A stretch of DNA of 10,447 nt from the NCBI GenBank assembly GCA_023136205.1, contig JAGLRQ010000036.1, forward strand, positions 1-10,447, written 5' to 3'. The notes under the pieces are model-generated. The model was given only the letters and a program-made list of their open reading frames with translations. It did not search any database and was not told the origin of the DNA. The DNA comes from Candidatus Auribacterota bacterium. GTDB lineage: Bacteria; Auribacterota; UBA6266. Made by a program: the position numbers and the translations under genes. This document shows, one piece after another, positions 1-10,447 of the stretch (positions are counted from its first letter, which is position 1; the number at the start of each line of letters is the position of its first letter).

Positions 1-662
1 AGGGATACCAGCCGCCTGGAATCACCAAAATTTAGAAAAAACATCCCTCCGGGCCGCAGATGCCTGCGTATATTGGCAAAAACCCGGGAAGGGTTTACAA
101 TATTTGACAGAGTAGCATAACAGGTAATTGCGTCAAAAGTTTTCGTAAAAGGCCAATCCCCTTCAAAATCCGCCCGTAAAACATCAACTCCGTAAGTTTC
201 ACGCCCCAATGCAATCATAGCATCGCTGATATCTATGCCGGAAGCCCTGTATCCGGACTGTGAAAGAGCGTTAACAAACAAACCATCCGAACAGCCTAAA
301 TCCAGAATACGGGCATTACAGGACAAATGCGGGGCCATCCATTTAACGCGTATTTCCGCGGTGCGCCTGCGTATATCTTTTTCACCAAGATACGAGTAAT
401 AATTAAGCATTGTAGAATCGGTTGGCCCTTTAGTCTTATGAGACCAGTATTCCAATGTTTCATAAAGATGTTCAAGGCTTTCTTTGTCCAAGACAGGATC
501 CTGATAAACCAGCCCGCAGGACAGGCAACGGACAAAACAAAATTCTTTACCAAGAAAAGGAACCGAATAAAGCGGTTTGCTCTCCCGGCTTCCGCACAAA
601 TCACACCTCTTAACAACGAATTTTAATTTTGACAGATCAAGCGGATTGAATTTTTCACTCAT
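1..662 (-). CDS. Class I SAM-dependent methyltransferase with N-terminal CxxC...CxxC zinc ribbon (3' end lies beyond the left window edge)
   Basis: Not in the ORF track because the frame reaches position 1 without a stop. The ATG at 662..660 overlaps the upstream TGA (661..659) as ATGA. I translated the frame by hand with no stops: MSEKFNPLDLSKLKFVVKRCDLCGSRESKPLYSVPFLGKEFCFVRCLSCGLVYQDP...NARILDLGCSDGLFVNALSQSGYRASGIDISDAMIALGRE...FDAITCYATLSNIVNPSRVFANIRRHLRPGGMFFLNFGD. The Zn-ribbon cysteines lie at 516..605. SAM motif I (ILDLGCSDG) is at 282..308, followed by GIDIS and LRPGGMFF, typical of the class I fold. Confidence 0.8.
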   Translation of the reverse strand, partial: MSEKFNPLDLSKLKFVVKRCDLCGSRESKPLYSVPFLGKEFCFVRCLSCGLVYQDPVLDKESLEHLYETLEYWSHKTKGPTDSTMLNYYSYLGEKDIRRRTAEIRVKWMAPHLSCNARILDLGCSDGLFVNALSQSGYRASGIDISDAMIALGRETYGVDVLRADFEGDWPFTKTFDAITCYATLSNIVNPSRVFANIRRHLRPGGMFFLNFGDSRRLVS

Positions 663-2362
663 TCAGAACAAGCCTCATTGAATTTATTACACTGCCATCC
701 ACAGGCTGTTTTTTCACCCAGAATACCGTCTTGAGGCAGTTGGAAAGGGCCATCCGGAACAACATTAAACTTTTTGCGTTTTTTAAATATATACAGATGG
801 TAATTTTTATCAAAACGTTTTCTGAACCACCACCAGTAATTCTTAACATAAGTGGTGGCATCTTTATCCCTTACAGCAATCATCACATCAAGAATTGAAA
901 TAAAAAACCTGAAGGGAAGCATCCAGAAAATCCTGTAAAACTTCATTTTCAACATAAGCCTCTTTGCCCATGGAGGTAAAAAACTCATCAATCTAAGCAT
1001 CCCGCGATAACCGTTTAGAAGACGTAAACGCTCGGGATCCGTTATTATAGAACCCCCTGTCATATAATTATCATGCAATCCGGCATTAAGCCTTTCTATT
1101 TCGCAATCATCCAATTCACCGCCCCTGACACCATGTTCAATGAGGACAGTAGCAGGCATATACTGAATTATAAAAGGGGCAATCCGATAACAATGACGCA
1201 AAGGAATTAAAAATTCCGCAAAACCCATCAACTCTTTTTTAAGAGATTCCAATACCTCTTCTTCCGATAAAGGAACAGGATTTCCCTTCTCCGTATGCTT
1301 TGGTAAACGCGGAAGTCCAAGAATATAATCATAGGCATAAGGCTGGCCAACTTTCTCCAGAATTTCTGTTGCCCTGTAAATATCCTCATTTGAATCAATA
1401 CGATTGAGAATTTTATTTCTGATTTCTTCATTCCAGCATTCAATCCCGATTTGAATAGCAAAACATCCGGCTTCTTTCATGGCTCGAACAGAAGCTTCAG
1501 TAACCAAAAGAGGATGGCTGAAACAACGGAAGGGAAGATTAATTTCCTCTTTGTAACGGGAGAAAAATTCGACTGTCCATTTTTCACTGGCAGACATCAC
1601 CGGCTGACGAAAATCTATCCACGAACATTTATATTTAATAATGTGGGCCTTTATTTCCTCTATAAGCGAATTAACAGAACGTTCCCGAAGCCTGGGGCCT
1701 TTTAATCTTTCAGCTTCCTCCCCTAAAAATGAAAGAGAACAATATGTGCACTTATAAGGACATCCCCTGGACGGACACGCGAGATAAGAATATTTTATCG
1801 GGACGTGCGGTGCAAATAATTCTTTATCTATAACAGGAAGGCTGTCAATATCTTTTATTAAAGGACGCATCTTATTCTTAATTAAAGTTCCATTTTCAAT
1901 CCGGAACCAGAGATTTTCAATGCTATAATCTATTTTCCCGGCATCTATGCTGTCAGCCAGCTCTAAGAGAGGATATTCTCCTTCCCCGAGACAGATTATA
2001 TCCACGGTAGGATCATCAGAAAATAGAACTTCATTTGGAGCAGAATGGGGATGTATCCCCCCAAAAATAACGGGGACGCGATAATATTTCTTTAATTCTT
2101 TCGCAAGATTCTTCATTTCCTGATACTGAATTGTCTGAACGTGGAACCCGACAAGGTCCGGCTCCAACTCAATAATACGTTGAAGCACCAGATCTTTTTG
2201 GCCGAACAATTTAGCCAGGAAATCAATTTTCAAATAATTCTTATCATCAAACAATGCCTGGTCATAAACAAGGTGAACCTCATGTCCATGTTCCTTAAGC
2301 ATTGCGGAAAGCGCCTGTAAAGCAATGTTTTCCCACCCTATCGCGACTAACACACATTTCAT
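659..2362 (-). CDS. Cobalamin (B12)-binding-domain radical SAM enzyme (class B rSAM), divergent paralog, probable methyltransferase or other C-H functionalising enzyme
   Basis: 567-aa ORF with an ATG at 2362..2360 in an ATGA overlap with the upstream GT2 stop. The N-terminal flavodoxin-like B12-domain pattern reads MKCVLVAIGWENIALQALSAMLKEHGHEVHLVYD...VIFGGIHPHSAPNEVL...IICLGEGEYPLLEL. The radical SAM CX3CX2C motif (CPYKCTYC) is at 1739..1762. The C-terminal tail is hydrophobic and basic. Confidence 0.85.
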   Translation of the reverse strand: MKCVLVAIGWENIALQALSAMLKEHGHEVHLVYDQALFDDKNYLKIDFLAKLFGQKDLVLQRIIELEPDLVGFHVQTIQYQEMKNLAKELKKYYRVPVIFGGIHPHSAPNEVLFSDDPTVDIICLGEGEYPLLELADSIDAGKIDYSIENLWFRIENGTLIKNKMRPLIKDIDSLPVIDKELFAPHVPIKYSYLACPSRGCPYKCTYCSLSFLGEEAERLKGPRLRERSVNSLIEEIKAHIIKYKCSWIDFRQPVMSASEKWTVEFFSRYKEEINLPFRCFSHPLLVTEASVRAMKEAGCFAIQIGIECWNEEIRNKILNRIDSNEDIYRATEILEKVGQPYAYDYILGLPRLPKHTEKGNPVPLSEEEVLESLKKELMGFAEFLIPLRHCYRIAPFIIQYMPATVLIEHGVRGGELDDCEIERLNAGLHDNYMTGGSIITDPERLRLLNGYRGMLRLMSFLPPWAKRLMLKMKFYRIFWMLPFRFFISILDVMIAVRDKDATTYVKNYWWWFRKRFDKNYHLYIFKKRKKFNVVPDGPFQLPQDGILGEKTACGWQCNKFNEACSE

Positions 2363-3084
2363 AGTTTTTTATTTTTCTCCCTGATTTCCCAAAAAAACTT
2401 TAGCATGTCATATATAGTCCGCGCTATAACAGAAAAACGAGTGTTAGTTGCCCTGCCATACATACGTCTTTTCATTCTCGCGGGCACTTCCGCGATAATC
2501 AATCCTTGCCTTCGCGCTTTAACCAGAATTTCAACGAGATAAAAAAACCTTGAATTGTCAAATCGGATTGTACCCGAAGAAAACAAATTTCGCCGATAAA
2601 CCTGAATCCAGTTTACATCCGTCAACCCAATATTAAACAGCAATGGAATCAGGATCCTATTATAAACAAACGATGCAAAGCGGGCAAAACCGCTATATCC
2701 AAGCCGTTCAACCCTGTACCCCACCACAATGTCACACACATCCATTCTGGGCAGATAAGCTTCCATATCTTCAATATCCAGAGGGTTATCAACAGGCACA
2801 AACATTACATATTTTTTGCCCGCGTGAGCAATTCCTGTTCGAAAGGCTCCGCCGCTGCCCTGATTAGTCCCATGATGAAAACAATAAATATTCGGGTAAC
2901 AACTTGCAATGCTATCGGCAATTTGCCCTGTTTTGTCCGTACTGCTGTCATCAACAATAATCATTTCAAAATCAAGATTTAATGACTGAAAAGTTTTCAT
3001 GGTATGCAAAACTGCATTTTCCAGAATTTTCTCTTCGTTATGCGCAGGTATCACAACTGAAACACTGTATCGGGAATTAGTCAT
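2359..3084 (-). CDS. Glycosyltransferase family 2 (GT-A fold), soluble DPM1-like type without a C-terminal TM hairpin
   Basis: GT2 signatures: VSVVIPAHNEEKILENAV and MIIVDDSSTDKTGQIA. I place the start at ATG 3084..3082 (MTNSRYSV...), preceded by AGGAGA at 3094..3089 and overlapping the upstream stop as ATGACTAA. The ORF-track start at 3108 is a TTG with no Shine-Dalgarno (SD) sequence. Confidence 0.85.
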   Translation of the reverse strand: MTNSRYSVSVVIPAHNEEKILENAVLHTMKTFQSLNLDFEMIIVDDSSTDKTGQIADSIASCYPNIYCFHHGTNQGSGGAFRTGIAHAGKKYVMFVPVDNPLDIEDMEAYLPRMDVCDIVVGYRVERLGYSGFARFASFVYNRILIPLLFNIGLTDVNWIQVYRRNLFSSGTIRFDNSRFFYLVEILVKARRQGLIIAEVPARMKRRMYGRATNTRFSVIARTIYDMLKFFWEIREKNKKL

Positions 3085-4183
3085 AAAATCTCCTAACTGC
3101 TCCAGCAACAGTATCGATTTGTTTATCGGTAATCTCCGGAAACATTGGAAGAGAAATTATTTTTTCTGACAGCTGTTCCGCCACAGGGCAGCTGCCTTTT
3201 TTATATCCGAGCGATGTAAAAGCCCGATGGAGATGGATAGGGACAGGATAATGGACTCCGCATCCTATATCCTGTTTAGTCAAATAATCTAAAAGCTCAT
3301 CACGCCGTTCGCATGTAAGGACAAAAAGGTGGAAAACGTGTCTGGAAATATTATCAAAGTCCAACACCGGCAGATGCAGGCCGTTTATATTTTTAAGTTT
3401 TTCGGTATAGCGGCGGGCCGCGTAAAACCGCTTTTTGTTCCATTCATCGAGAAACTTAATCTTAATATTTAAGATCGCTGCCTGCAGGGAATCCAGACGG
3501 CTGTTCGTCCCAGGAAATTCGTGTATATATTTTTTAATAGAACCGTAATTACGAAGCAACCTTAGTTTTTCCGCGACAGAATGGTCTTCAGTTACTATCA
3601 TTCCACCGTCCCCAAACGCTCCAAGATTTTTACCGGGATAAAAACTGAAACATCCAACAGCCCCAAAACTGCCCACGCGCCGGCCTTCCCACATAGCTCC
3701 ATGCGCCTGACACGCATCCTCAATAAGAATAAGATTGTGTTTTCGCGAGAATGCTGTTACAGCATCCATATCCATACTCCGGCCATAAAGATGCACCGGT
3801 AAAATTGCTTTTGTCCGGCCGGTAAGACGGCTGGAAGCATCAGTCAGATCCATAAGAAACGATTCAGGATTAACATCAACAGGAACCGGAATAGAGCCCA
3901 GGTCATAAACACTAAGAGCTGTAGCGATAAATGTATTTGCCGGAACCAGAACTTCATCGCCGGGGCCGATGCCGAGAGCCTGACACGCAAGACGTAAAGC
4001 ATCCGTTCCGCTGGCCACTCCAACCGCCTCTTTTACTCCAAGGTACGCGCAAAATCGTTTTTCAAAACGCTGCACTTCAGGGCCAAGGACAAACATTCCC
4101 GAAGAGCAAACATCTTCAAAAGCTTTTTTAAATTCTTTTCTATAAAGGGTGTATTGCTGCACAACATCAACAAAAGGTATCAT
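3077..4183 (-). CDS. DegT/DnrJ/EryC1/StrS-family PLP-dependent nucleotide-sugar aminotransferase
   Basis: 368 aa. Family hallmarks: MIPFVDVVQQY...FVLGPEVQRFEKRF...GVASGTDALRLACQALGIGPGDEVLVPANTFIATA...IEDACQAHGA...SFYPGKNLGAFGDGGMIVT. The candidate PLP lysine K185 is encoded at 3629..3631. Further hallmarks are NSRLDSLQAAIL and SLPMFPEITD. The ATG at 4183 is preceded by AAGGA at 4196..4192. Confidence 0.9.
   Translation of the reverse strand: MIPFVDVVQQYTLYRKEFKKAFEDVCSSGMFVLGPEVQRFEKRFCAYLGVKEAVGVASGTDALRLACQALGIGPGDEVLVPANTFIATALSVYDLGSIPVPVDVNPESFLMDLTDASSRLTGRTKAILPVHLYGRSMDMDAVTAFSRKHNLILIEDACQAHGAMWEGRRVGSFGAVGCFSFYPGKNLGAFGDGGMIVTEDHSVAEKLRLLRNYGSIKKYIHEFPGTNSRLDSLQAAILNIKIKFLDEWNKKRFYAARRYTEKLKNINGLHLPVLDFDNISRHVFHLFVLTCERRDELLDYLTKQDIGCGVHYPVPIHLHRAFTSLGYKKGSCPVAEQLSEKIISLPMFPEITDKQIDTVAGAVRRFYD
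3089..3094 (-). promoter_or_regulatory. Shine-Dalgarno (AGGAGA) for the soluble GT2, embedded in the 3' end of the aminotransferase gene
   Basis: The minus strand reads AGGAGATTTTATGACTAA. The SD, the start codon and the upstream stop all fall within 18 nt. Confidence 0.55.
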
Positions 4184-4191
4184 ATTGCCTA

Positions 4192-4196
4192 TCCTT
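4192..4196 (-). promoter_or_regulatory. Shine-Dalgarno-like AAGGA for the aminotransferase, overlapping the oxidoreductase stop codon
   Basis: The minus strand reads TTAAGGATAGGCAATATG, with 8 nt between the SD and ATG 4183. Confidence 0.4.
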
Positions 4197-5208
4197 AATT
4201 TATATTCTGCGGTATCCCTCCAGCCCGCATGGATTTATGAGCCGCAACAAGTGTCCGAGTAACGCCGAGGTCAAATCCTCCATCTACAATGTTTTCTTCA
4301 TTATCCAAAACCAGCCTTACAAAAGCGTCGCTCATCTGACTAACCGGTTCACGCATATCAACTTTTGGGCTAATAATATCTCCATCCCGCAGTAAAAAAC
4401 GAAAATTGCCAAAATCAGGCTCAACAGAATCAGAAATACAAATCCCCTTTTCAAAAAGGCGCACCGGTTCCAGATTATTCAAGTCGTTAAATACCGCCCT
4501 GGCCTTACTGCCGATAACATGTACCCGCCGCTCCTTATTTGAATCAACCCAGCTTACATGAATCTGGCCAACTATACCTCCGGGATAAAAAAGTGTTATA
4601 AAAGCAATGTCCGCCTGGTCAAAACCTAAAGGACTTGCTGATACGGCGGAAACTTTCTCCGGAACAGCGTTTAAGAGATAATTCATAATAGAAACATCAT
4701 GAGGGGCAAGGTCCCACGCGACGCTAACATCTTTACGAACAAGCCCCATGTGCGTTCGCATTGCTGTCAAATAATACAATTTCCCAAGTCTTTCCGAGTC
4801 AATTAACTCTTTAAGTTTCCTAACAGCGTTGTTAAAAAGAAAGGTATATCCAACCATTAGCTTACACCCTGATGACTTAGCAATAGCACACAGTTCCTCA
4901 CATTTCGCCCCATCCAAAGCAAGCGGTTTCTCGCTAAAAACATGCTTACCCGCTAGAAGAGCTTTCTTTACCAAATCATAATGGGTTGACGCGGGAGTAA
5001 TAATTGCCACCGAATCAATATCAGAGGCATTTACAACCAGAGATGCATCGGTAACACATTTACATTCTTTGGGAAGTAATCCTTTCACTCCTTTAAATGA
5101 AGATTCCAAAACATCACAGACATATTTGAGATTTACCCTGGGATGCCCGACAAAATTTCGAACAATATTCGGGCCCCAGTGGCCAAGTCCTATAATTCCT
5201 ATGTTCAT
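4195..5208 (-). CDS. Gfo/Idh/MocA-family NAD(P)-dependent oxidoreductase, probable nucleotide-sugar dehydrogenase (WbpB/GnnA-like role inferred)
   Basis: The Rossmann N-terminus is MNIGIIGLGHWGPNIVRNF. The family EKP motif (VFSEKPLA) and DLAPHD are present. The ORF-track start at 5232 is a TTG. GGAGG at 5219..5215 sits 3 nt before ATG 5211 and 6 nt before ATG 5208, so I prefer 5208, with 5211 possible. Confidence 0.85.
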   Translation of the reverse strand: MNIGIIGLGHWGPNIVRNFVGHPRVNLKYVCDVLESSFKGVKGLLPKECKCVTDASLVVNASDIDSVAIITPASTHYDLVKKALLAGKHVFSEKPLALDGAKCEELCAIAKSSGCKLMVGYTFLFNNAVRKLKELIDSERLGKLYYLTAMRTHMGLVRKDVSVAWDLAPHDVSIMNYLLNAVPEKVSAVSASPLGFDQADIAFITLFYPGGIVGQIHVSWVDSNKERRVHVIGSKARAVFNDLNNLEPVRLFEKGICISDSVEPDFGNFRFLLRDGDIISPKVDMREPVSQMSDAFVRLVLDNEENIVDGGFDLGVTRTLVAAHKSMRAGGIPQNIN

Positions 5209-5214
5209 CATTTT

Positions 5215-5219
5215 CCTCC
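5215..5219 (-). promoter_or_regulatory. Shine-Dalgarno (GGAGG) for the oxidoreductase gene
   Basis: The minus strand reads TTGGAGGAAAATGATGAAC. This is the strongest SD in the window and lies in the only gap longer than 21 bp. Confidence 0.6.
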
Positions 5220-5240
5220 AAAACGTATTCAAAATCTTTT

Positions 5241-6767
5241 TTAACTCATCCTGAATATCTTTATAAATTCCCTCATCGATATAGAGGTTTTTCTCTTCAG
5301 CAGAACATTAAAAAATAACTCACCGAATTTAACGAGCATTATAACAAATAAAACAATAAGCGCGGGCATCTTTTTAAGAAAACCAAATATTTTTCTGCCG
5401 GGGTTAAACCACCTCATGCCTGTATCGGGCCTGGTAAATATCTTCTTAATTCTGTTAATATCAAAATAAAACGCAAAATAACTAAATAAAATATCCATTC
5501 TTAATTCTTCTTCAGAACTTCCAATCGGGACATATGAAAAGGGTATTTTTTTAAAAGGATTTTCAATAAAGGCCGATACCGAGTTGAAATTTTCGTATAG
5601 CCCCCGCACATTTAACCTGTTTTCTCTTTTTGCAATCTCATAGAGCTCGGTTCCGGGATATGGTGTCGCATTATTAAACCTCACCATATCCAATTTCAAT
5701 ACCTTGCTCATTTTTGCACAATTAAGTCTCTCTTCGTGAGTTTCACCCGGGATACCATACATAAATACGGCACTGATATGAAACCCAATCTGTCCGGCTC
5801 CCTTGGCGGCTTCGACACATTGTTTAACAGTTTCACTTTTCTGAAGAACCTTCATCATTCTCTCAGATGCTGTTTCTAAACCCAAGGAAAGATTTTTAAA
5901 ACCAGTGTTATATAAAGCTTCAAACAGTTTATAATCAAAACTATCCGCTCTTGCCTGAAAAGAAAAAGTCATCTTTTTATCAAACCCTCTTTTCTTAAGT
6001 TCTTCCAGAAGAATATATATTCTCTCTTTATTAACCAGAAAATTATCATCAAGAAAAAGAATATGATTCTGGTGATACTTATTATGTAAGATATCCAGTT
6101 CATTAACTACAGATTCAACCGATCTAAACCTGTATCTTTTTCCGGTTATAAGCCTGTTGCTGCAAAAAATACAGTCAAAAGGGCATCCCCGCGAAGTTAC
6201 TATAGAACCAAGGTCATATCTTGCAGGGTTAAAAAGATGGAATGGAAAGGGCGGTAATTCATTAAGATTTTCTATAAAAGGCGCATCCCTGTTATGAATA
6301 ACCCGGCCGTTTCGCCTATAAGAAAGCCCATCTAAATGGAAAAAATCCTTTCTCCCTTTTACAAGCCCGTATAATTCGGGCAAAGTTTTCTCTCCTTCAC
6401 CCCTAATGACAACATCAATATGGCCATAAGACAAAACTTCCTCCGGCACAGCCGTCGGATGAATTCCCCCGAAACAAATCACAGAATCAGGATAAAGTTC
6501 TTTTACCCTCTTTGAAGTCAGCACAGCGGTTTTAAAGGCTGCCGTTAAAACACTAAATCCAAAAATATAAGGGGGTTCTGTCTCTTTTATATATTTTTCT
6601 ATCAGCCCAAGAGTATTACTTTCGACATGCTCATCTATAAACCTGGCCTTAATTTTCTTGTTTTCGGTAACAGCCAGAAGAGATCCAATCCCTATCGGCA
6701 GATTAGTGCGCGAAAAGGGCTGAAATATCTTCAAAGTATCTTTTGGTGAGGAATTAATTAATATCAT
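5241..6767 (-). CDS. Cobalamin (B12)-binding-domain radical SAM enzyme (class B rSAM), canonical-looking paralog
   Basis: 508 aa. B12-domain pattern: LPIGIGSLLAVTENKKIKARFIDE...VICFGGIHPTAVPEEVL...VVIRGEGEKTLPEL. The CX3CX2C motif (CPFDCIFC) is at 6162..6185. Core rSAM motifs are SLGLETASERMMKVLQK and MYGIPGETHEE. A C-terminal hydrophobic segment (KMPALIVLFVIMLVKFGELFFNVLL) is at 5298..5372. The ATG at 6767 overlaps the upstream gene by 14 bp. Confidence 0.9.
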   Translation of the reverse strand: MILINSSPKDTLKIFQPFSRTNLPIGIGSLLAVTENKKIKARFIDEHVESNTLGLIEKYIKETEPPYIFGFSVLTAAFKTAVLTSKRVKELYPDSVICFGGIHPTAVPEEVLSYGHIDVVIRGEGEKTLPELYGLVKGRKDFFHLDGLSYRRNGRVIHNRDAPFIENLNELPPFPFHLFNPARYDLGSIVTSRGCPFDCIFCSNRLITGKRYRFRSVESVVNELDILHNKYHQNHILFLDDNFLVNKERIYILLEELKKRGFDKKMTFSFQARADSFDYKLFEALYNTGFKNLSLGLETASERMMKVLQKSETVKQCVEAAKGAGQIGFHISAVFMYGIPGETHEERLNCAKMSKVLKLDMVRFNNATPYPGTELYEIAKRENRLNVRGLYENFNSVSAFIENPFKKIPFSYVPIGSSEEELRMDILFSYFAFYFDINRIKKIFTRPDTGMRWFNPGRKIFGFLKKMPALIVLFVIMLVKFGELFFNVLLKRKTSISMREFIKIFRMS

Positions 6768-7407
6768 TTCTTTTTAATTTCTCTTTATATCTCATGCTGA
6801 CACCATCAAAATAGGCAGAAGTTCCTGCATCCGCGACACACATGATGTAAAGAGACTGGGTATCAACCGGAACTTTATAAGGAATCTTAAGTTTTTCCCA
6901 TTGTCCACTATTTTGGTAGAACACTCTATTATAAGGATCATCCCTGCCATTGATGGAAACAACATAAATATAAACTTTGTCAGGACTTTTATTTGCCGAT
7001 TTAATCCACGCGTCAATAATTATATTTTTGTTTAACAGACTATATAATTTATCTCTGGGAACACAAAAAATTATATGGGTAGCTTCAGTTTTATCCGCCT
7101 CCACTTCCACAGAAGACGTTCCTATTTTAACATTTTCTGCACCGGTTGCCCTTCGGATTCCCTGCTGTTTAGGAAAAACCCAACCAGAAGGAACAGAAAA
7201 TTTTCCATTGCTCCACGATTCAAAACCGCCGTTTGTCTCAGGCCTCAGGATAGTGTTTATTATATCATCATCCGATTGGGCAATCTCACTGATAGCACAT
7301 TCCCTGTTTTTTGACATAAACAGTACAATTACAATAATTAATCCTATAAAAAGCCACATTAGTTTTTTTGTTGCAACCCTACGCCGCTGTCCTGAAACTT
7401 TTTTCAT
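6754..7407 (-). other. C-terminal module of the polytopic protein: signal-anchor-like segment plus a roughly 155-aa CBM/jelly-roll-like domain
   Basis: An in-frame ATG at 7407..7405 begins MKKVSGQRRRVATKKLMWLFIGLIIVIVLFMSKN. The TM is encoded at 7315..7362. After it comes ...ETNGGFESWSNGKFSVPSGW...GTSSVEVEA...IIIDAWIKS...VYIYVVS...QWEKLKIPYKVP...LYIMCVADAGTSAYFDGVSMRY. The alternating beta-strand pattern and the NGGFE-x-W opening resemble CBM_4_9-type carbohydrate-binding modules. Confidence 0.5.
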
Positions 7408-8994
7408 TACTTCAGCACTTTCTGCCGACACAGAACAATATTTTTTATCCCAGTCTTCCTGAAAACATTTTTTGATTGTTGCGGACCAAGAGTTAGTTTT
7501 ATTTTCATCTATACGGTATCTCACAGACCCTTCAAAAATACTTACAACCCCTTTGACTAAAACCGCTAATCCAACTGACAAAAGAAGAACAAACACAGGA
7601 AAATAATTTGTTGTGTGAACATCTGCCGGAGGAAAGTACACACAAAGAATGCCAAGCATATAAAATCCCTGAAATACAACTGTAATCAAAGGCCCAAAAT
7701 TCTTTTTGCGGAAAAAGAAAAGTACCAAAAGGCTAAAAAGTACAAGCCACGGGAAAATGCGGGTGAGCTTAAGAATTTTAGGATCGTACCTAACATACTT
7801 TTTATTGCTGTCCAATATTCCGAATTTTTTATCAGTATCCAGAATACCAAAAAAGGCGGGGCCTCCTATATAACGAACTCTGTCTTTTGGTGTCATTGCT
7901 ATTCCGGAACAGAAATTGGTTTTGAAGTTACGCAGAAAAATATCCGGCCTCTCTTTAAATAAACAAACTATCTCTTTCATTACAAATTTATCATATTCCT
8001 GAATTCCCACTTTATTAAGATCAGGCCCGCCCCTCTCCATCACCCAATCTATCGCAGTCAGATCAGCACTGTCTTTTACGCCAAACGGATTCGGGTAAGC
8101 GCCCAATCCCTGAATAACATTGTGCCATTTACCTCTTACAGACAGGGTATATCGATCATAATATTTCTGTGTAATAAGTACCTGCGGTACCAGCAATATC
8201 CCCTGTCCCATCAACATGGCAAGGATCAATATCAGACTTCTTTTATAGTTTCGTTCACGAAAAAAAATCAGAGGAGACAAAAACAAAGGAAGAAAGAGAA
8301 AACTGAGACGAAGAGAAGTAGCAAATCCTATTACCACGCCGTATAAAAAAAACAATGAAAACAAAACTTTCAGGGAATATGTTCTGCTTTCAGGTTTGTA
8401 GATTGCAGCCCAGAATAAAAGGCTCAAGGCTGAAAATGGAATAGACCAGTAGTAGTAAGATACCCAGCTCATCATCATAATAGATGGCTTGAATAAGGCG
8501 TAAAGCACTGCCGCGAAACTACCGCCAAGAGGGCCCGCTATTGACCTGCCGGCAAAAAATAGAAGAATTATAACAAGAAGGTCCAACATCATTTGATATC
8601 TAACAACCGTCATTGCCAGATTCTGTATACCCCTTGTACCCTCCTTGAATATCAGGCTCAGGATAAACTCCCAGCCTTTCTCGTTTTCAAAAGACGCGGT
8701 CGCGGGTTCTTTAGGATAATGGGTAAAAACATAATCATCCGGATTTTCTTTTATTTTCAAGCCTTCTTCAAAGTTGTAACCTCCAGGTTCCGTCCAAAAA
8801 TGTGAGGCCATCTCAACATAAAATTCAAAACCACCATTTATTCCAAAGTTTTTCTTAATATCAACAGCCCTATACCCCGCGCCTACAACCAGTGAGATTA
8901 AAAGTATCAAAAAAATAACTGGTTTTACAAATCTGTGGCGGGTTTTCAGAAATCTTTCATATAAATTTACTGATATTTTCCGTATTTTTGGCAT
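6754..8994 (-). CDS. Polytopic membrane protein (about 11 TM segments), putative GT-C-type lipid-carrier-dependent glycosyltransferase (or polymerase/ligase-like), with a C-terminal extracytoplasmic beta-sandwich module
   Basis: A long ORF with strongly hydrophobic segments that fit the positive-inside rule. The N-terminus is basic (KIRK, KTRHRFVK). There are two large loops, at about residues 48-130 and 281-417 in ORF-track numbering. The basic stretch RRRVATKK precedes the last TM. The gene sits immediately downstream of an ArnC/GtrB-type GT2. The start is uncertain: the track's 9009 is a TTG, and GTG 8997 and ATG 8994 follow. I list ATG 8994. The family assignment was not verified. Confidence 0.7.
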   Translation of the reverse strand: MPKIRKISVNLYERFLKTRHRFVKPVIFLILLISLVVGAGYRAVDIKKNFGINGGFEFYVEMASHFWTEPGGYNFEEGLKIKENPDDYVFTHYPKEPATASFENEKGWEFILSLIFKEGTRGIQNLAMTVVRYQMMLDLLVIILLFFAGRSIAGPLGGSFAAVLYALFKPSIMMMSWVSYYYWSIPFSALSLLFWAAIYKPESRTYSLKVLFSLFFLYGVVIGFATSLRLSFLFLPLFLSPLIFFRERNYKRSLILILAMLMGQGILLVPQVLITQKYYDRYTLSVRGKWHNVIQGLGAYPNPFGVKDSADLTAIDWVMERGGPDLNKVGIQEYDKFVMKEIVCLFKERPDIFLRNFKTNFCSGIAMTPKDRVRYIGGPAFFGILDTDKKFGILDSNKKYVRYDPKILKLTRIFPWLVLFSLLVLFFFRKKNFGPLITVVFQGFYMLGILCVYFPPADVHTTNYFPVFVLLLSVGLAVLVKGVVSIFEGSVRYRIDENKTNSWSATIKKCFQEDWDKKYCSVSAESAEVMKKVSGQRRRVATKKLMWLFIGLIIVIVLFMSKNRECAISEIAQSDDDIINTILRPETNGGFESWSNGKFSVPSGWVFPKQQGIRRATGAENVKIGTSSVEVEADKTEATHIIFCVPRDKLYSLLNKNIIIDAWIKSANKSPDKVYIYVVSINGRDDPYNRVFYQNSGQWEKLKIPYKVPVDTQSLYIMCVADAGTSAYFDGVSMRYKEKLKRNDIN
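7798..7851 (-). repeat. In-frame 2 x 27-bp imperfect tandem duplication encoding FGILDTDKK / FGILDSNKK
   Basis: The minus strand reads TTTGGTATTCTGGATACTGATAAAAAA (7851..7825), then TTCGGAATATTGGACAGCAATAAAAAG (7824..7798). By hand alignment, 18 of 27 nt and 7 of 9 aa are identical. Confidence 0.8.
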
Positions 8995-8998
8995 CACA

Positions 8999-9937
8999 TT
9001 AACTATCAAAATTGACTTTTTCTTTAATAATTATATAGGGTTTTTTTCGGACCTGGGAATGAATGGCTACTACATATTCACCTACCATTCCTATAAAAAA
9101 GAGTTGAATACCTAAAAACAGCAGCATTAAAATAATAAAACCCGCGGCAACTGATATTTGGGTTTTATAAATGCTTAATTTTAAAATAAGGTAAATAAAA
9201 CCCATCAAAAAACTCAAAACCGATAATCCGATACCAGTAAGAGTACATAATCTAACCGGCGCTATCGAACTACTTACAATACCGTTAATCGCAAAATCTA
9301 TCAGAAAAGCGAATGTGCTTTTTGATTTTCCTTTGGGCCTTGTTCCTCTAATATACTCTACACCGATTTGATTGAAACCAACCGAAGCCATCAGGCCTCT
9401 TATATACGGCCTGTAATCTTCTATTTTAACCAGTTCATCAACTATTTTTCTGTCCACTAAACGAAACCCTCCGGAATTCAACGGCGGCTTATCTTCCGAC
9501 AAAGAATTGATCAATCTATAAAAAATTCTGCGGACAAAAGCCATCAAAAAAATTTCCCGGCTTTTATTTCTAACCCCGTATACAGCAGAATATCCATCCT
9601 CCCAGTGCTTTATAAAAGTGGTTATTAAGTCCGCGGGATCTTTCAAATTTGCCTCATAACAAATTACAGCGGCCCCTGCCGCGTATTTGTAACCTGTCAT
9701 TAAACCTCTCAGGACACCAAAGTTTTTGGAAAACACTAATATTTTTACTTTTTTATCTTTTTGGGCTATTTCTTTCAAAATAGAAACCGTTGCGTCAGTA
9801 CTGCAATTATCCATAAATATGTGTTCGTAATCGTACTTTTTTTCTAATCCCGCAAATACCCTTTTTATCTCTTTATAAACCTCCGCGACTGTTTCTTCTT
9901 CATTCCGAACGCCGGTTATAACAGAAATCTTTTTCAT
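8999..9937 (-). CDS. GT2 polyprenyl-phosphate glycosyltransferase (ArnC/GtrB/CsbB/DPM1-like) with a C-terminal two-helix membrane anchor
   Basis: 312 aa. Signatures: ISVITGVRNEEETV, FMDNCSTDAT and DGYSAVYGVRNKSRE. Two C-terminal TM helices end in the family-typical GIQLFFIGMVGEYVVAIHSQVRKKPYIIIKE. The ATG at 9937 is preceded by GAGGAA at 9948..9943. Confidence 0.9.
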   Translation of the reverse strand: MKKISVITGVRNEEETVAEVYKEIKRVFAGLEKKYDYEHIFMDNCSTDATVSILKEIAQKDKKVKILVFSKNFGVLRGLMTGYKYAAGAAVICYEANLKDPADLITTFIKHWEDGYSAVYGVRNKSREIFLMAFVRRIFYRLINSLSEDKPPLNSGGFRLVDRKIVDELVKIEDYRPYIRGLMASVGFNQIGVEYIRGTRPKGKSKSTFAFLIDFAINGIVSSSIAPVRLCTLTGIGLSVLSFLMGFIYLILKLSIYKTQISVAAGFIILMLLFLGIQLFFIGMVGEYVVAIHSQVRKKPYIIIKEKVNFDS

Positions 9938-9942
9938 AAAAA

Positions 9943-9948
9943 TTCCTC
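9943..9948 (-). promoter_or_regulatory. Shine-Dalgarno (GAGGAA) for the membrane-anchored GT2
   Basis: The minus strand reads ATGAGGAATTTTTATG, with 5 nt between the SD and ATG 9937. Confidence 0.5.
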
Positions 9949-9958
9949 ATATTTCAAT

Positions 9959-10447
9959 TTATACGGCCTTTAACATCTTTTCAAAAATCTTACGAATATA
10001 TTCACGCTGTTTTTCGCATATCCCCGGATAAACTCCAACCCAGAAAAGACGATCCATTACTAAATCGGTATTAAATAACTTTCCGGAAACCCTGTATTTT
10101 ACATCCCGGTAAGCAGGCTGCCTGGTCAAATTCCCGCCAAACAACATACGAGTCGCTATTTTATTATTTTCCAAATAATTCACAATGCCATCCCGTGTAA
10201 AAGGCGCATTTTCTTTTACCAATATGGGAAAACCAAACCAGCTCGGTTCGGAATTCTTCTCAGCACGCGGTAAAATAAAATGTTTTTTATGTTTTTCCAA
10301 AAGATTATAGATAAAACTAAAATTTTTTCGGCGCAGGCTGATAAAATCCTTAAGTTTTTTTAACTGAGCACAGCCAATTGCTGCCTGCATATCGGTTATC
10401 TTAAGGTTATATCCGATATGCGAATAAATATATTTATGGTCATAACC
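9959..10447 (-). CDS. rfbH: RfbH/DdhC (E1)-like NDP-4-keto-6-deoxyhexose 3-dehydrase family protein within the DegT superfamily (N-terminus lies beyond the right window edge)
   Basis: The track lists 9959..10390, but the frame stays open to 10447: GYDHKYIYSHIGYNLKITD precedes MQAAIGCAQLKKL. The C-terminal region (SWFGFPILVKE...ATRMLFGGNLTRQPAYRDVKYRVSGKLFNTDLVMDRLFWVGVYPGI) closely follows what I recall of the Salmonella RfbH C-terminus (AGNLTRQP...VKYRV.G.L.NTD..M...FW.G.YPG). The catalytic His-for-Lys diagnostic position lies outside the window. Confidence 0.75.
   Translation of the reverse strand, partial: GYDHKYIYSHIGYNLKITDMQAAIGCAQLKKLKDFISLRRKNFSFIYNLLEKHKKHFILPRAEKNSEPSWFGFPILVKENAPFTRDGIVNYLENNKIATRMLFGGNLTRQPAYRDVKYRVSGKLFNTDLVMDRLFWVGVYPGICEKQREYIRKIFEKMLKAV

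Follow-up and report, generated by a model that had tools for sequence, protein, structure and literature searches.

A rare, divergent family of GT-C-fold membrane proteins with a predicted role in surface glycan modification in Auribacterota and other uncultivated bacteria

What does a large membrane protein do when no curated family recognises it and when its gene directly follows that of a glycosyltransferase? The question is raised by a stretch of 10,447 nucleotides from a Candidatus Auribacterota bacterium (GenBank assembly GCA_023136205.1, contig JAGLRQ010000036.1, positions 1 to 10,447), here called the window, in which all genes lie on the minus strand and are tightly packed. The gene under study encodes a polytopic protein of 746 amino acids (aa), hereafter the target. 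A preliminary description, made from the letters alone, had seen no family signature in it and had proposed a GT-C-like extracytoplasmic transferase, possibly from an undescribed family. We now consider it probable that the target is a polyprenyl-phosphate-sugar-dependent glycosyltransferase of the GT-C_A type, working at the outer face of the cytoplasmic membrane and modifying a surface glycan; most likely it would attach an unusual, lipid-carried sugar to a glycan of the cell surface. The predicted fold, the topology, the pattern of conservation, the identity of the neighbouring family 2 glycosyltransferase (GT2), the fold of a carbohydrate-binding module (CBM) and the recurring gene context support this reading. 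Our verdict is that the target belongs to a rare, undescribed and divergent GT-C family, and that the system in which it works is of a known kind.

The reading frame runs from an ATG at 8994 to a stop codon at 6754-6756 and encodes 746 aa plus stop; an identical 746-aa product is already on record (P0001, on a 291-kb metagenomic scaffold). Residues are numbered here from this ATG, and those of the preliminary description, which started at an in-frame TTG at 9009, are 5 higher. Kyte-Doolittle windows and two AlphaFold models, one of the full-length protein (pLDDT 85.4, pTM 0.86) and one of the membrane domain (pLDDT 85.9, pTM 0.88), agree on 11 transmembrane (TM) helices: TM1 24-47, TM2 125-148, TM3 154-175, TM4 182-198, TM5 208-228, TM6 232-247, TM7 254-279, TM8 405-427, TM9 433-453, TM10 463-487 and TM11 541-562. 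Lysine and arginine number 28 per 101 residues in the proposed cytoplasmic segments compared with 1 per 18 in the short outer loops, where the sole such residue is the invariant R229. Because of this distribution the positive-inside rule gives an N-in/C-out topology, in which the outer loops (EL) EL1 and EL4, like the C-terminal module, face the exterior, and it therefore also places the RRRVATKK linker inside. The linker itself holds 12 lysines and arginines in 53 residues and is modelled with low pLDDT at 523-535. The preliminary description had counted about 11 hydrophobic segments, with the basic N-terminus and the linker inside and two large loops and the C-terminal module outside, and this layout is upheld throughout.

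When the membrane-domain model was searched against the PDB with Foldseek, the best 36 matches were all GT-C proteins, and the first match outside this group had a probability of 0.08. The best was AglB (7e9s; E 9.3e-7, query TM-score (TMq) 0.51-0.52, about 500-530 aligned columns), of the AglB/STT3/PglB group. Further GT-C matches included eukaryotic STT3, ArnT (5ezm, E 4.9e-4), ALG3, PglB and Pmt1/2/4, as well as AftB, ALG9/12, PimE, AftA and the GT-C-like PIGU (7w72_U, E 0.035); EmbC and EmbA-EmbB turned up in the search with the whole protein. Thus ArnT and PglB, two of the structures proposed for comparison in the preliminary description, are among the matches, and WaaL, a third, is not. 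Against viral models Foldseek found nothing significant (best E 0.024). A small, mostly helical outer domain after TM1 is a hallmark of GT-C proteins, and EL1 is modelled as just such a domain, with three short helices (56-64, 75-83 and 107-115). On these models we regard the GT-C fold of the membrane domain as unambiguous.

At the level of sequence the family lies far from anything curated. The membrane domain has no Pfam match and nothing meaningful in NCBIfam, and neither the target (phmmer) nor the family profile (hmmsearch) matches any PDB chain. On the target, PMT_2 and PMT give no Pfam match at E up to 0.1, Pfam YfhO and STT3 and the NCBIfam ArnT model give none, and NCBIfam archaeo_STT3 reaches 12.6 bits against a cut-off of 450 bits. 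YfhO-like genes do occur as separate neighbours in three related loci (L002, L003 and L006). A tblastn search of phage and plasmid collections returned no match, and a description of the family was not found in the Omnitrophota and anammox literature. A word-indexed search gave 42 homologs, 33-70% identical to the target, all of them named 'hypothetical' or 'LamG domain-containing', from metagenome-assembled genomes (MAGs) labelled Omnitrophota, Auribacterota, Brocadiales and Desulfovibrionaceae. With homologs at such identities, and invariant residues found mainly at the outer face, we take the target to be real and under selection. The family is rare: among 1.84 billion protein cluster representatives, a hidden Markov model (HMM) of the membrane domain picked up 278 relatives at E up to 1e-3, of which only 34 remained when the limit was E 1e-30, and a motif-seeded scan of 185,579 species-representative genomes gave 5 loci.

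The link to known GT-C enzymes runs through intermediates. Ten outgroup proteins nearest to the family have no confident Pfam match, two of them giving marginal matches below threshold (Wzy_C, E 0.045; PMT_2, E 0.0068). Further out, 40 of 100 distant relatives match PMT_2, four PMT, three Glyco_transf_22, two DUF2142, one STT3 and one a TMEM260-like model. A profile of these distant relatives aligns with the family at an hhalign probability of 100% (E 3.7e-52), has AglB as its best PDB sequence match (E 2.6e-10), also reaches TMEM260 (E 0.0086) and aligns with residues 73-238 (TM2-TM7) of Escherichia coli ArnT (hhalign probability 88.9%, E 2.4e-6). The family thus branches off, divergent and without a curated model, at the margin of the PMT_2/STT3-like GT-C clan and is no orphan. 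Of the earlier suggestion of an undescribed family, the lack of any Pfam, NCBIfam or PDB sequence match stands, and the independence that it might imply does not, given the intermediates that lead to GT-C enzymes of the PMT_2/AglB type.

Conservation, computed across the 42 homologs, points to a probable active site on the outside: of the polar and aromatic residues that are invariant or nearly so, almost all face outwards. Invariant in the family are E105, Y181-Y182-W183, R229, R287, N302, N356 and N360. With near-invariant positions included, the set comprises R42 in TM1; D86 (93% acidic), E103, E105 and E118 in EL1; R132, Q134 and D138 in the outer half of TM2; Y180-Y181-Y182-W183 and S188 at the EL2/TM4 boundary; R229 in EL3; Q271 in TM7; and R287, W290, H291, N302, D308, D311, D325, N327, E348, N356 and N360 in EL4, a loop that accounts for about 34 of some 80 conserved positions. 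The glycine after E105, R229, N302, D311 and P350 are kept at more than 90% across the wider superfamily. The strings GGFEFYVEMASHFW, PDDY and WHNVIQGLGAYPNPFG that the preliminary description singled out in the loops are all present, although the acids that it highlighted are mostly not the conserved ones. Its proposed catalytic acids E57, E61 and DD86-87 fare poorly, position 57 being acidic in 60% of homologs and glycine in the LamG subgroup, and D87 and D86 being acidic in 68% and 93%.

E105 is instead the candidate catalytic or donor-binding carboxylate suggested by the alignment, and its surroundings align with the 'dpG' of the wider superfamily. By position and by its E-K pair, FENEKGW may recall YFEKP, a functional motif in the first periplasmic loop of ArnT (PMC5377068), a likeness that is not a statistical result. 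The ArnT loop-1 strings RYA and YFEKP themselves are absent from the target, and no conserved DE, the motif of PMT, follows TM1. In EL2 the target has no acidic DxD/DxH motif of the STT3 type, and the aligned position is occupied by Y180-Y181-Y182-W183, of which Y180 is tyrosine in 40 of the 42 homologs. Alignments chained from the family through the distant-relative profile to AglB and E. coli ArnT place YYYW on H162-H163-I164-W165 of AglB, directly after D161, and on the aspartate of 'LDPF' in ArnT. We take the D161/H163 motif of AglB to be metal-binding. Because YYYW stands where AglB and ArnT have their acidic EL2 motif, the mechanism may be independent of metal. R229, in an outer loop of three residues, is a candidate ligand of the donor phosphate. 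The signature that opens EL4 is invariant or near-invariant in the family and has the form WH..G.G...NP.G....D in the wider superfamily, whose profile aligns W290-H291 with 'FWHYFF' of ArnT. Coordinates of these elements, and of the genes and modules around them, are given in Table 1.

Table 1. Positions of the target, its predicted parts and its immediate neighbours in the window.
Feature	Position	Strand	Basis
Target: GT-C-fold polytopic protein, probable glycosyltransferase, with C-terminal CBM-like module	6754..8994	(-)	Open reading frame (ORF) and translation, AlphaFold
GT-C membrane domain, residues 1-495, TM1 to TM10	7510..8994	(-)	Foldseek against PDB; profile reaches PMT_2-bearing relatives
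Outer loop EL1, residues 48-124	8623..8853	(-)	AlphaFold secondary structure, positive-inside topology
E105 in FENEKGW, only 100% conserved acid of EL1	8680..8682	(-)	Glu in 40/40 homologs
Y180-Y181-Y182-W183, EL2/TM4 boundary	8446..8457	(-)	Conservation, chained alignments
R229 in 3-residue outer loop EL3	8308..8310	(-)	Invariant in family, >90% in superfamily
Outer loop EL4, residues 280-404, mostly helical	7783..8157	(-)	AlphaFold, conservation
Signature R287-G-K-W290-H291-x4-G-x-G-x3-N302-P-x-G-x5-D311, start of EL4	8062..8136	(-)	Conservation
Cytoplasmic linker, residues 488-540 (53 residues), including conserved CFxEDWD and RRRV stretch	7375..7533	(-)	Charge, conservation
TM11, residues 541-562, returns chain to outside	7309..7374	(-)	Hydropathy, AlphaFold, charge
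Extracytoplasmic beta-sandwich, CBM4/9/16/22-like, residues about 575-746	6757..7272	(-)	Pfam, Foldseek
GtrB/ArnC/PgfS-type GT2, 312 aa	8999..9937	(-)	PDB phmmer, NCBIfam, gene junction
B12-binding radical SAM gene	5241..6767	(-)	Pfam B12-binding and Radical_SAM
RfbH-type CDP-6-deoxy-hexulose 3-dehydrase, 3' part, runs off window	9959..10447	(-)	NCBIfam

The neighbouring GT2 suggests what the donor may be. Its product matches GtrB (5ekp, E 1.1e-49, over residues 4-305 of 312), ArnC (E 1.5e-27) and DPMS (E 4.7e-9) in a phmmer search of the PDB; in NCBIfam it scores 204.7 bits with PgfS against a cut-off of 500 bits and also lies below the ArnC equivalog cut-off. Since it aligns end to end with GtrB, ArnC and DPMS, we identify it as a polyprenyl-phosphate glycosyltransferase and presume that it supplies the sugar donor in lipid-linked form. 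Between its stop codon and the ATG of the target there are 4 nt, and the gene for the radical S-adenosylmethionine (SAM) protein overlaps the 3' end of the target by 14 nt; therefore the three genes form one operon. The pairing with a GT2 membrane enzyme of this class had been foreseen in the preliminary description. GtrB-like GT2 genes also accompany family members elsewhere (L005, L006, L007, L009 and the edge of L004, besides the parent scaffold of the window, L001), and this recurrence in related clusters, together with the GT2 next to the target, lends contextual support to a polyprenyl-phosphate-linked donor.

On the parent scaffold the five genes before the GT2 encode RfbF (glucose-1-phosphate cytidylyltransferase; 331 bits, cut-off 300), a CDP-glucose 4,6-dehydratase-like protein, a short-chain dehydrogenase/reductase (SDR), a B12-radical-SAM protein and RfbH. 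The RfbH fragment in the window scores 184 bits over 143 aa, and for the full gene in L001 the score is 716.7 bits (cut-off 423). We read these upstream genes (9959-10447 in the window, then L001 3669-9036) as a route of the CDP-3,6-dideoxyhexose type into which a radical-SAM step has been inserted. In L005, too, this block stands ahead of a GT2 and a family member, and the module suggests a C-modified deoxyhexose as the lipid-linked donor. Moreover, B12-radical-SAM genes lie near family members in all eight loci examined (8/8), SAM methyltransferases in most loci and carbamoyltransferases in three.

The tail of the target may point to the acceptor. In the full-length model it matches CBM16, CBM61, CBM4-2 and CBM22 by Foldseek with target TM-scores (TMt) of 0.66-0.76 and probability 1.00, the best being CBM16 (2zey, E 5e-6, TMt 0.74-0.76). 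The tail begins with NGGFESW and ends with AYFDGVSM, which we take to be typical edge-strand strings of CBM_4_9 domains, and the homolog P0027 carries a precomputed match to PF02018. The modelled tail clearly matches carbohydrate-binding folds, and sugar binding is predicted for it. Tails vary across the family: 25 of the 42 homologs have one of the CBM type (3 of them also LamG), 8 have LamG only and 9 are short. Two further features of the chain may be noted. In the linker between TM10 and TM11 the family conserves a motif, EGxxRCW...ECFxEDWD, of which the window protein has KCFQEDWD and lacks the first cysteine; a cytoplasmic partner could dock at this motif. At the tip of EL4, modelled with low confidence, residues 383-400 (window 7795-7848, minus strand) form a tandem duplication of nine residues, FGILDTDKK followed by FGILDSNKK. 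It is an insertion relative to most homologs, its DNA copies are identical at only 18/27 bases, and Tandem Repeats Finder did not report it.

From these elements we infer the identity of the donor, the roles of residues, the glycan acceptor and the independence of divalent metal, and we propose the following scheme. The CDP-glucose-derived deoxyhexose module (RfbF, 4,6-dehydratase, RfbH and SDR) and a B12-radical-SAM enzyme would build an unusual sugar in the cytoplasm, and the adjoining upstream GtrB/ArnC-type GT2 would move it onto undecaprenyl phosphate. The lipid-linked monosaccharide would then cross the membrane via a flippase and be held by the target in a groove formed by EL1, EL4 and the outer ends of TM1-TM7. 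Here R229 and R287/H291 may hold the phosphate, and E105, possibly together with D311, may act as the base that activates the acceptor hydroxyl. The sugar would be passed to a cell-surface glycan captured with the help of the CBM-like module, which TM11 would anchor outside. The gene logic is that of three-component extracytoplasmic glycosylation, in which a GT-C enzyme acts together with a donor synthase and a flippase; this logic is reviewed and extended in PMC11127046.

Several observations weigh against this scheme. Many GT-C enzymes have their catalytic base directly after TM1, and here no invariant aspartate or glutamate is found there, position 45 being acidic in 45% and position 48 in 68% of homologs. 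The family profile by itself finds no solved GT-C enzyme in the PDB and aligns with E. coli ArnT at an hhalign probability of 0.7%, which is not significant; the homology to known GT-C enzymes is therefore transitive or structural. The match of the tail to Pfam CBM_4_9 (E 7.7e-5, 23.5 bits) stays just under the cut-off of 25.9 bits. Two related loci lack a GT2 as large as GtrB/ArnC within 8 kb: L002 has no GT2 at all, and L003 only one of 246 aa. A flippase of the GtrA, SMR, MATE or Wzx-like kind was looked for in the 22-kb locus around the target and none was found. As judged from the alignments, the family is set apart from characterised GT-C enzymes by having no conserved acid after TM1 and tyrosine in place of the AglB and ArnT acids.

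Could the acceptor be a protein rather than a glycan? A glycosyltransferase acting on the surface layer (S-layer) or another surface protein, with a lipid-linked sugar as in PMT/TMEM260 or a lipid-linked oligosaccharide as in AglB/STT3/PglB, would suit the best structural match, since AglB is an oligosaccharyltransferase, and the superfamily profile, which matches both AglB and TMEM260, a protein O-mannosyltransferase; these two are the nearest relatives with solved structures. A Brocadiales MAG is the source of one family member, and the anammox S-layer protein bears an O-glycan with a putative dimethylated deoxyhexose and a methylated N-acetylhexosamine (PMC5088730), sugars that would agree with a context of deoxyhexose, methyltransferase and radical-SAM genes; the LamG tails of paralogs could also bind protein. 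However, the target has no WWDYG, no WWD and no WW pair, it carries YYYW where STT3-type enzymes have their acidic EL2 motif, its archaeo_STT3 score is far below the cut-off, and it has neither a PMT, PMT_2 or TMEM260-like match nor MIR or TPR domains. Its tail, moreover, has a carbohydrate-binding fold, and a GT2 of the adjacent type makes monosaccharide-phosphate-lipid and not pyrophosphate-linked oligosaccharide donors. We regard a protein acceptor as unlikely. Transfer of an amino or deoxy sugar from undecaprenyl phosphate to lipid A, the lipopolysaccharide core or another glycolipid, as by ArnT, is distinctly improbable. The gene order does recall arnB-arnC...arnT, with a DegT aminotransferase scoring 227 bits with the ArnB model, an ArnC-like GT2 and then a GT-C gene; the superfamily profile aligns with ArnT, and FENEKG is similar to its functional YFEKP motif (PMC5377068). 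But the target is unmatched by the ArnT and PMT_2 models, ArnT has no CBM, lectin-like tails that are swapped from one paralog to the next (CBM, LamG or no tail) argue for polymeric glycans as acceptors, and two or three paralogs per cluster are unlike arn operons.

We give very little credence to a non-catalytic GT-C-like scaffold, as PIGU is in glycosylphosphatidylinositol (GPI) transamidase, or to a transporter or flippase of lipid-linked sugar, in spite of the presence of PIGU among the fold matches, the failure to find a flippase in the 22-kb cluster and the missing canonical aspartate after TM1: on the outer face EL1, EL2, EL3 and EL4 carry some 20 polar and aromatic residues that are invariant or almost so, as is typical of an active site, and transporter folds appear at a probability of 0.1 or less. 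A Wzy/WaaL-type polymerase or ligase acting on undecaprenyl-pyrophosphate-linked repeat units seems extremely improbable. Such enzymes would share the polytopic form and a large outer loop with W-H...N-P, and one distant relative has a marginal Wzy_C match (E 0.045, 14 bits against a cut-off of 31.7), but the target has no Wzy_C match at E up to 0.1. WaaL (7tpg), tried as a fold, gave only E 0.74, probability 0.14 and TMq 0.18, behind 36 GT-C proteins. The resemblance to Wzy_C and O-antigen ligases suggested in the preliminary description has accordingly to be given up; the WH...NP.G...D string that had seemed an echo of Wzy_C is the signature of the wider superfamily. The HMM searches that it had proposed (PMT_2, PMT, YfhO and Wzy_C) gave no match on the target. 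A polyprenyl-phosphate-dependent, glycan-modifying GT-C enzyme is thus the reading that we retain.

Family members recur as sets, with three paralogs each in L006 and L008 and two in L004. L001 has two family members, the target and a tail-less paralog of 516 aa (1988-3538; family profile E 1.6e-153), which adjoins a polytopic protein of 543 aa (350-1981) that has no Pfam match and matches only the wider-superfamily profile (E 4.4e-12). Counting this more distant relative, the cluster on the scaffold has three GT-C-like genes. One may speculate, although we hold it to be rather unlikely, that the family is the core of an unrecognised extracytoplasmic glycan assembly line in which paralogous GT-C enzymes, two or three in number and alike except for their lectin tails (CBM, LamG or none), build and do not merely decorate a surface glycan. 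Its hosts would be uncultivated anaerobes (Omnitrophota, Auribacterota, Brocadiales, Desulfobacterota and Armatimonadota), and as donors it would use lipid-linked monosaccharides whose precursors, CDP-deoxyhexose and amino sugars, had been remodelled by B12-radical-SAM enzymes. With a metal-independent YYYW site, it would form a non-actinobacterial counterpart of mycobacterial arabinan assembly.

Downstream of the target the window encodes, in order, the B12-radical-SAM protein, a GFO/IDH/MocA oxidoreductase, a DegT aminotransferase, a GT2 of 249 aa, a second B12-radical-SAM protein and a methyltransferase. The oxidoreductase (UDP-N-acetylglucosamine 3-dehydrogenase-like), the aminotransferase and the 249-aa GT2 (2359-5232, minus strand) form a block that is also found in L007; this GT2 has no membrane helices and gives weak PpgS/AglJ/DPM-like matches. 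Possibly this block is a second module that provides a paralogous GT-C enzyme with a lipid-linked amino-sugar donor. B12-radical-SAM genes are dense, with two in the window (659-2362 and 5241-6767, both minus) and at least five in 22 kb, plus one of the SPASM type; their best family matches are HpnJ, ApyD and BchE, all far below cut-off. Between radical-SAM genes, L001 20302-21466 encodes two adjacent small, soluble, Cys-rich proteins of 214 and 176 aa that share GLCP..YH and have no family match. At the window end, 1-662 (minus) is the 5' part of a gene for a SAM-dependent methyltransferase of 309 aa that runs off the window (L001 18333-19262), and two overlapping ORFs of 99-106 aa at 296-626 are artefacts within this region. 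Neither Rfam nor a tRNA scan gave any match in the window.

Those steps of glycan and glycoprotein assembly that take place outside the cell are the work of GT-C enzymes, among them ArnT in polymyxin resistance, the Emb proteins as targets of ethambutol, and oligosaccharyltransferase. Because the present family has no curated model, automated annotation calls all its members 'hypothetical', and this missing annotation keeps a whole set of surface-glycan clusters out of sight in phyla that are poorly known. The pairing of a GtrB-like synthase with a GT-C transferase is well established as a kind of system, and the architecture has a precedent from 2024, so that the surprise for a specialist is moderate. 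What is new is a family without a curated model and confined to uncultivated lineages, the loss of the usual acidic motifs, the modular lectin tails among co-clustered paralogs and the constant association with B12-radical-SAM genes. The absence of the acidic motifs bears on the mechanism of GT-C enzymes, the lectin modules swapped among paralogs bear on how acceptor specificity is set, and the B12-radical-SAM and methyltransferase context bears on C- or O-methylation of lipid-linked or nucleotide sugars. New sequence families are still being founded by experiment, as was GT136 in 2024 (PMC11127046).

How does the target compare with systems that have been described? From AglB, STT3 and PglB (GT66) it differs in having neither the WWDYG-bearing C-terminal domain nor DxD/DxH, in its 11 rather than 13 TM helices, and in a gene context that points to a monosaccharide-phosphate-lipid and not an oligosaccharide-pyrophosphate-lipid donor. 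In the ArnC/ArnT (GT83, PMT_2) systems and the GtrB/GtrC-type systems of O-antigen glucosylation, as proposed here, a GtrB/ArnC-type GT2 loads undecaprenyl phosphate and a GT-C enzyme transfers the sugar on the periplasmic face. In contrast to ArnT, however, the target has tyrosine for the aspartate of 'LDPF' and an additional TM11 and CBM-like module, no ArnE/F- or GtrA-like flippase lies nearby, and the acceptor is probably a glycan instead of lipid A. The mycobacterial arabinosyltransferases EmbA/B/C, AftA, AftB and AftD are GT-C enzymes with extracytoplasmic CBMs, several paralogs of which serve one pathway with one lipid-linked monosaccharide donor. This analogy is one of gene content only; the Emb and Aft proteins are much larger, belong to another sequence family, have other CBM types and are restricted to Actinobacteria.

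A further comparison is with ORF12 of Citrobacter youngae O1, the founder of GT136, which is part of a three-component extracytoplasmic glycosylation system (PMC11127046). ORF12 works with a donor synthase and a flippase, and its CBM binds the unmodified backbone of the acceptor polysaccharide (PMC11127046). Its donor is undecaprenyl-phosphate-ribofuranose, made from phosphoribosyl pyrophosphate (PRPP) by a UbiA-type synthase, whereas a GtrB-type GT2 accompanies the target; ORF12 has a functional aspartate, D31, at TM1, where the target family has no conserved acid; and it is present as a single copy, with no radical-SAM context described. The target is likened to ORF12 by its published architecture and not by sequence. 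In that architecture the two share 11 TM helices, a small helical domain after TM1, a beta-rich module after TM11 (a CBM in ORF12, CBM-like in the target) and a synthase, presumed in the case of the target, for a lipid-linked monosaccharide donor encoded nearby.

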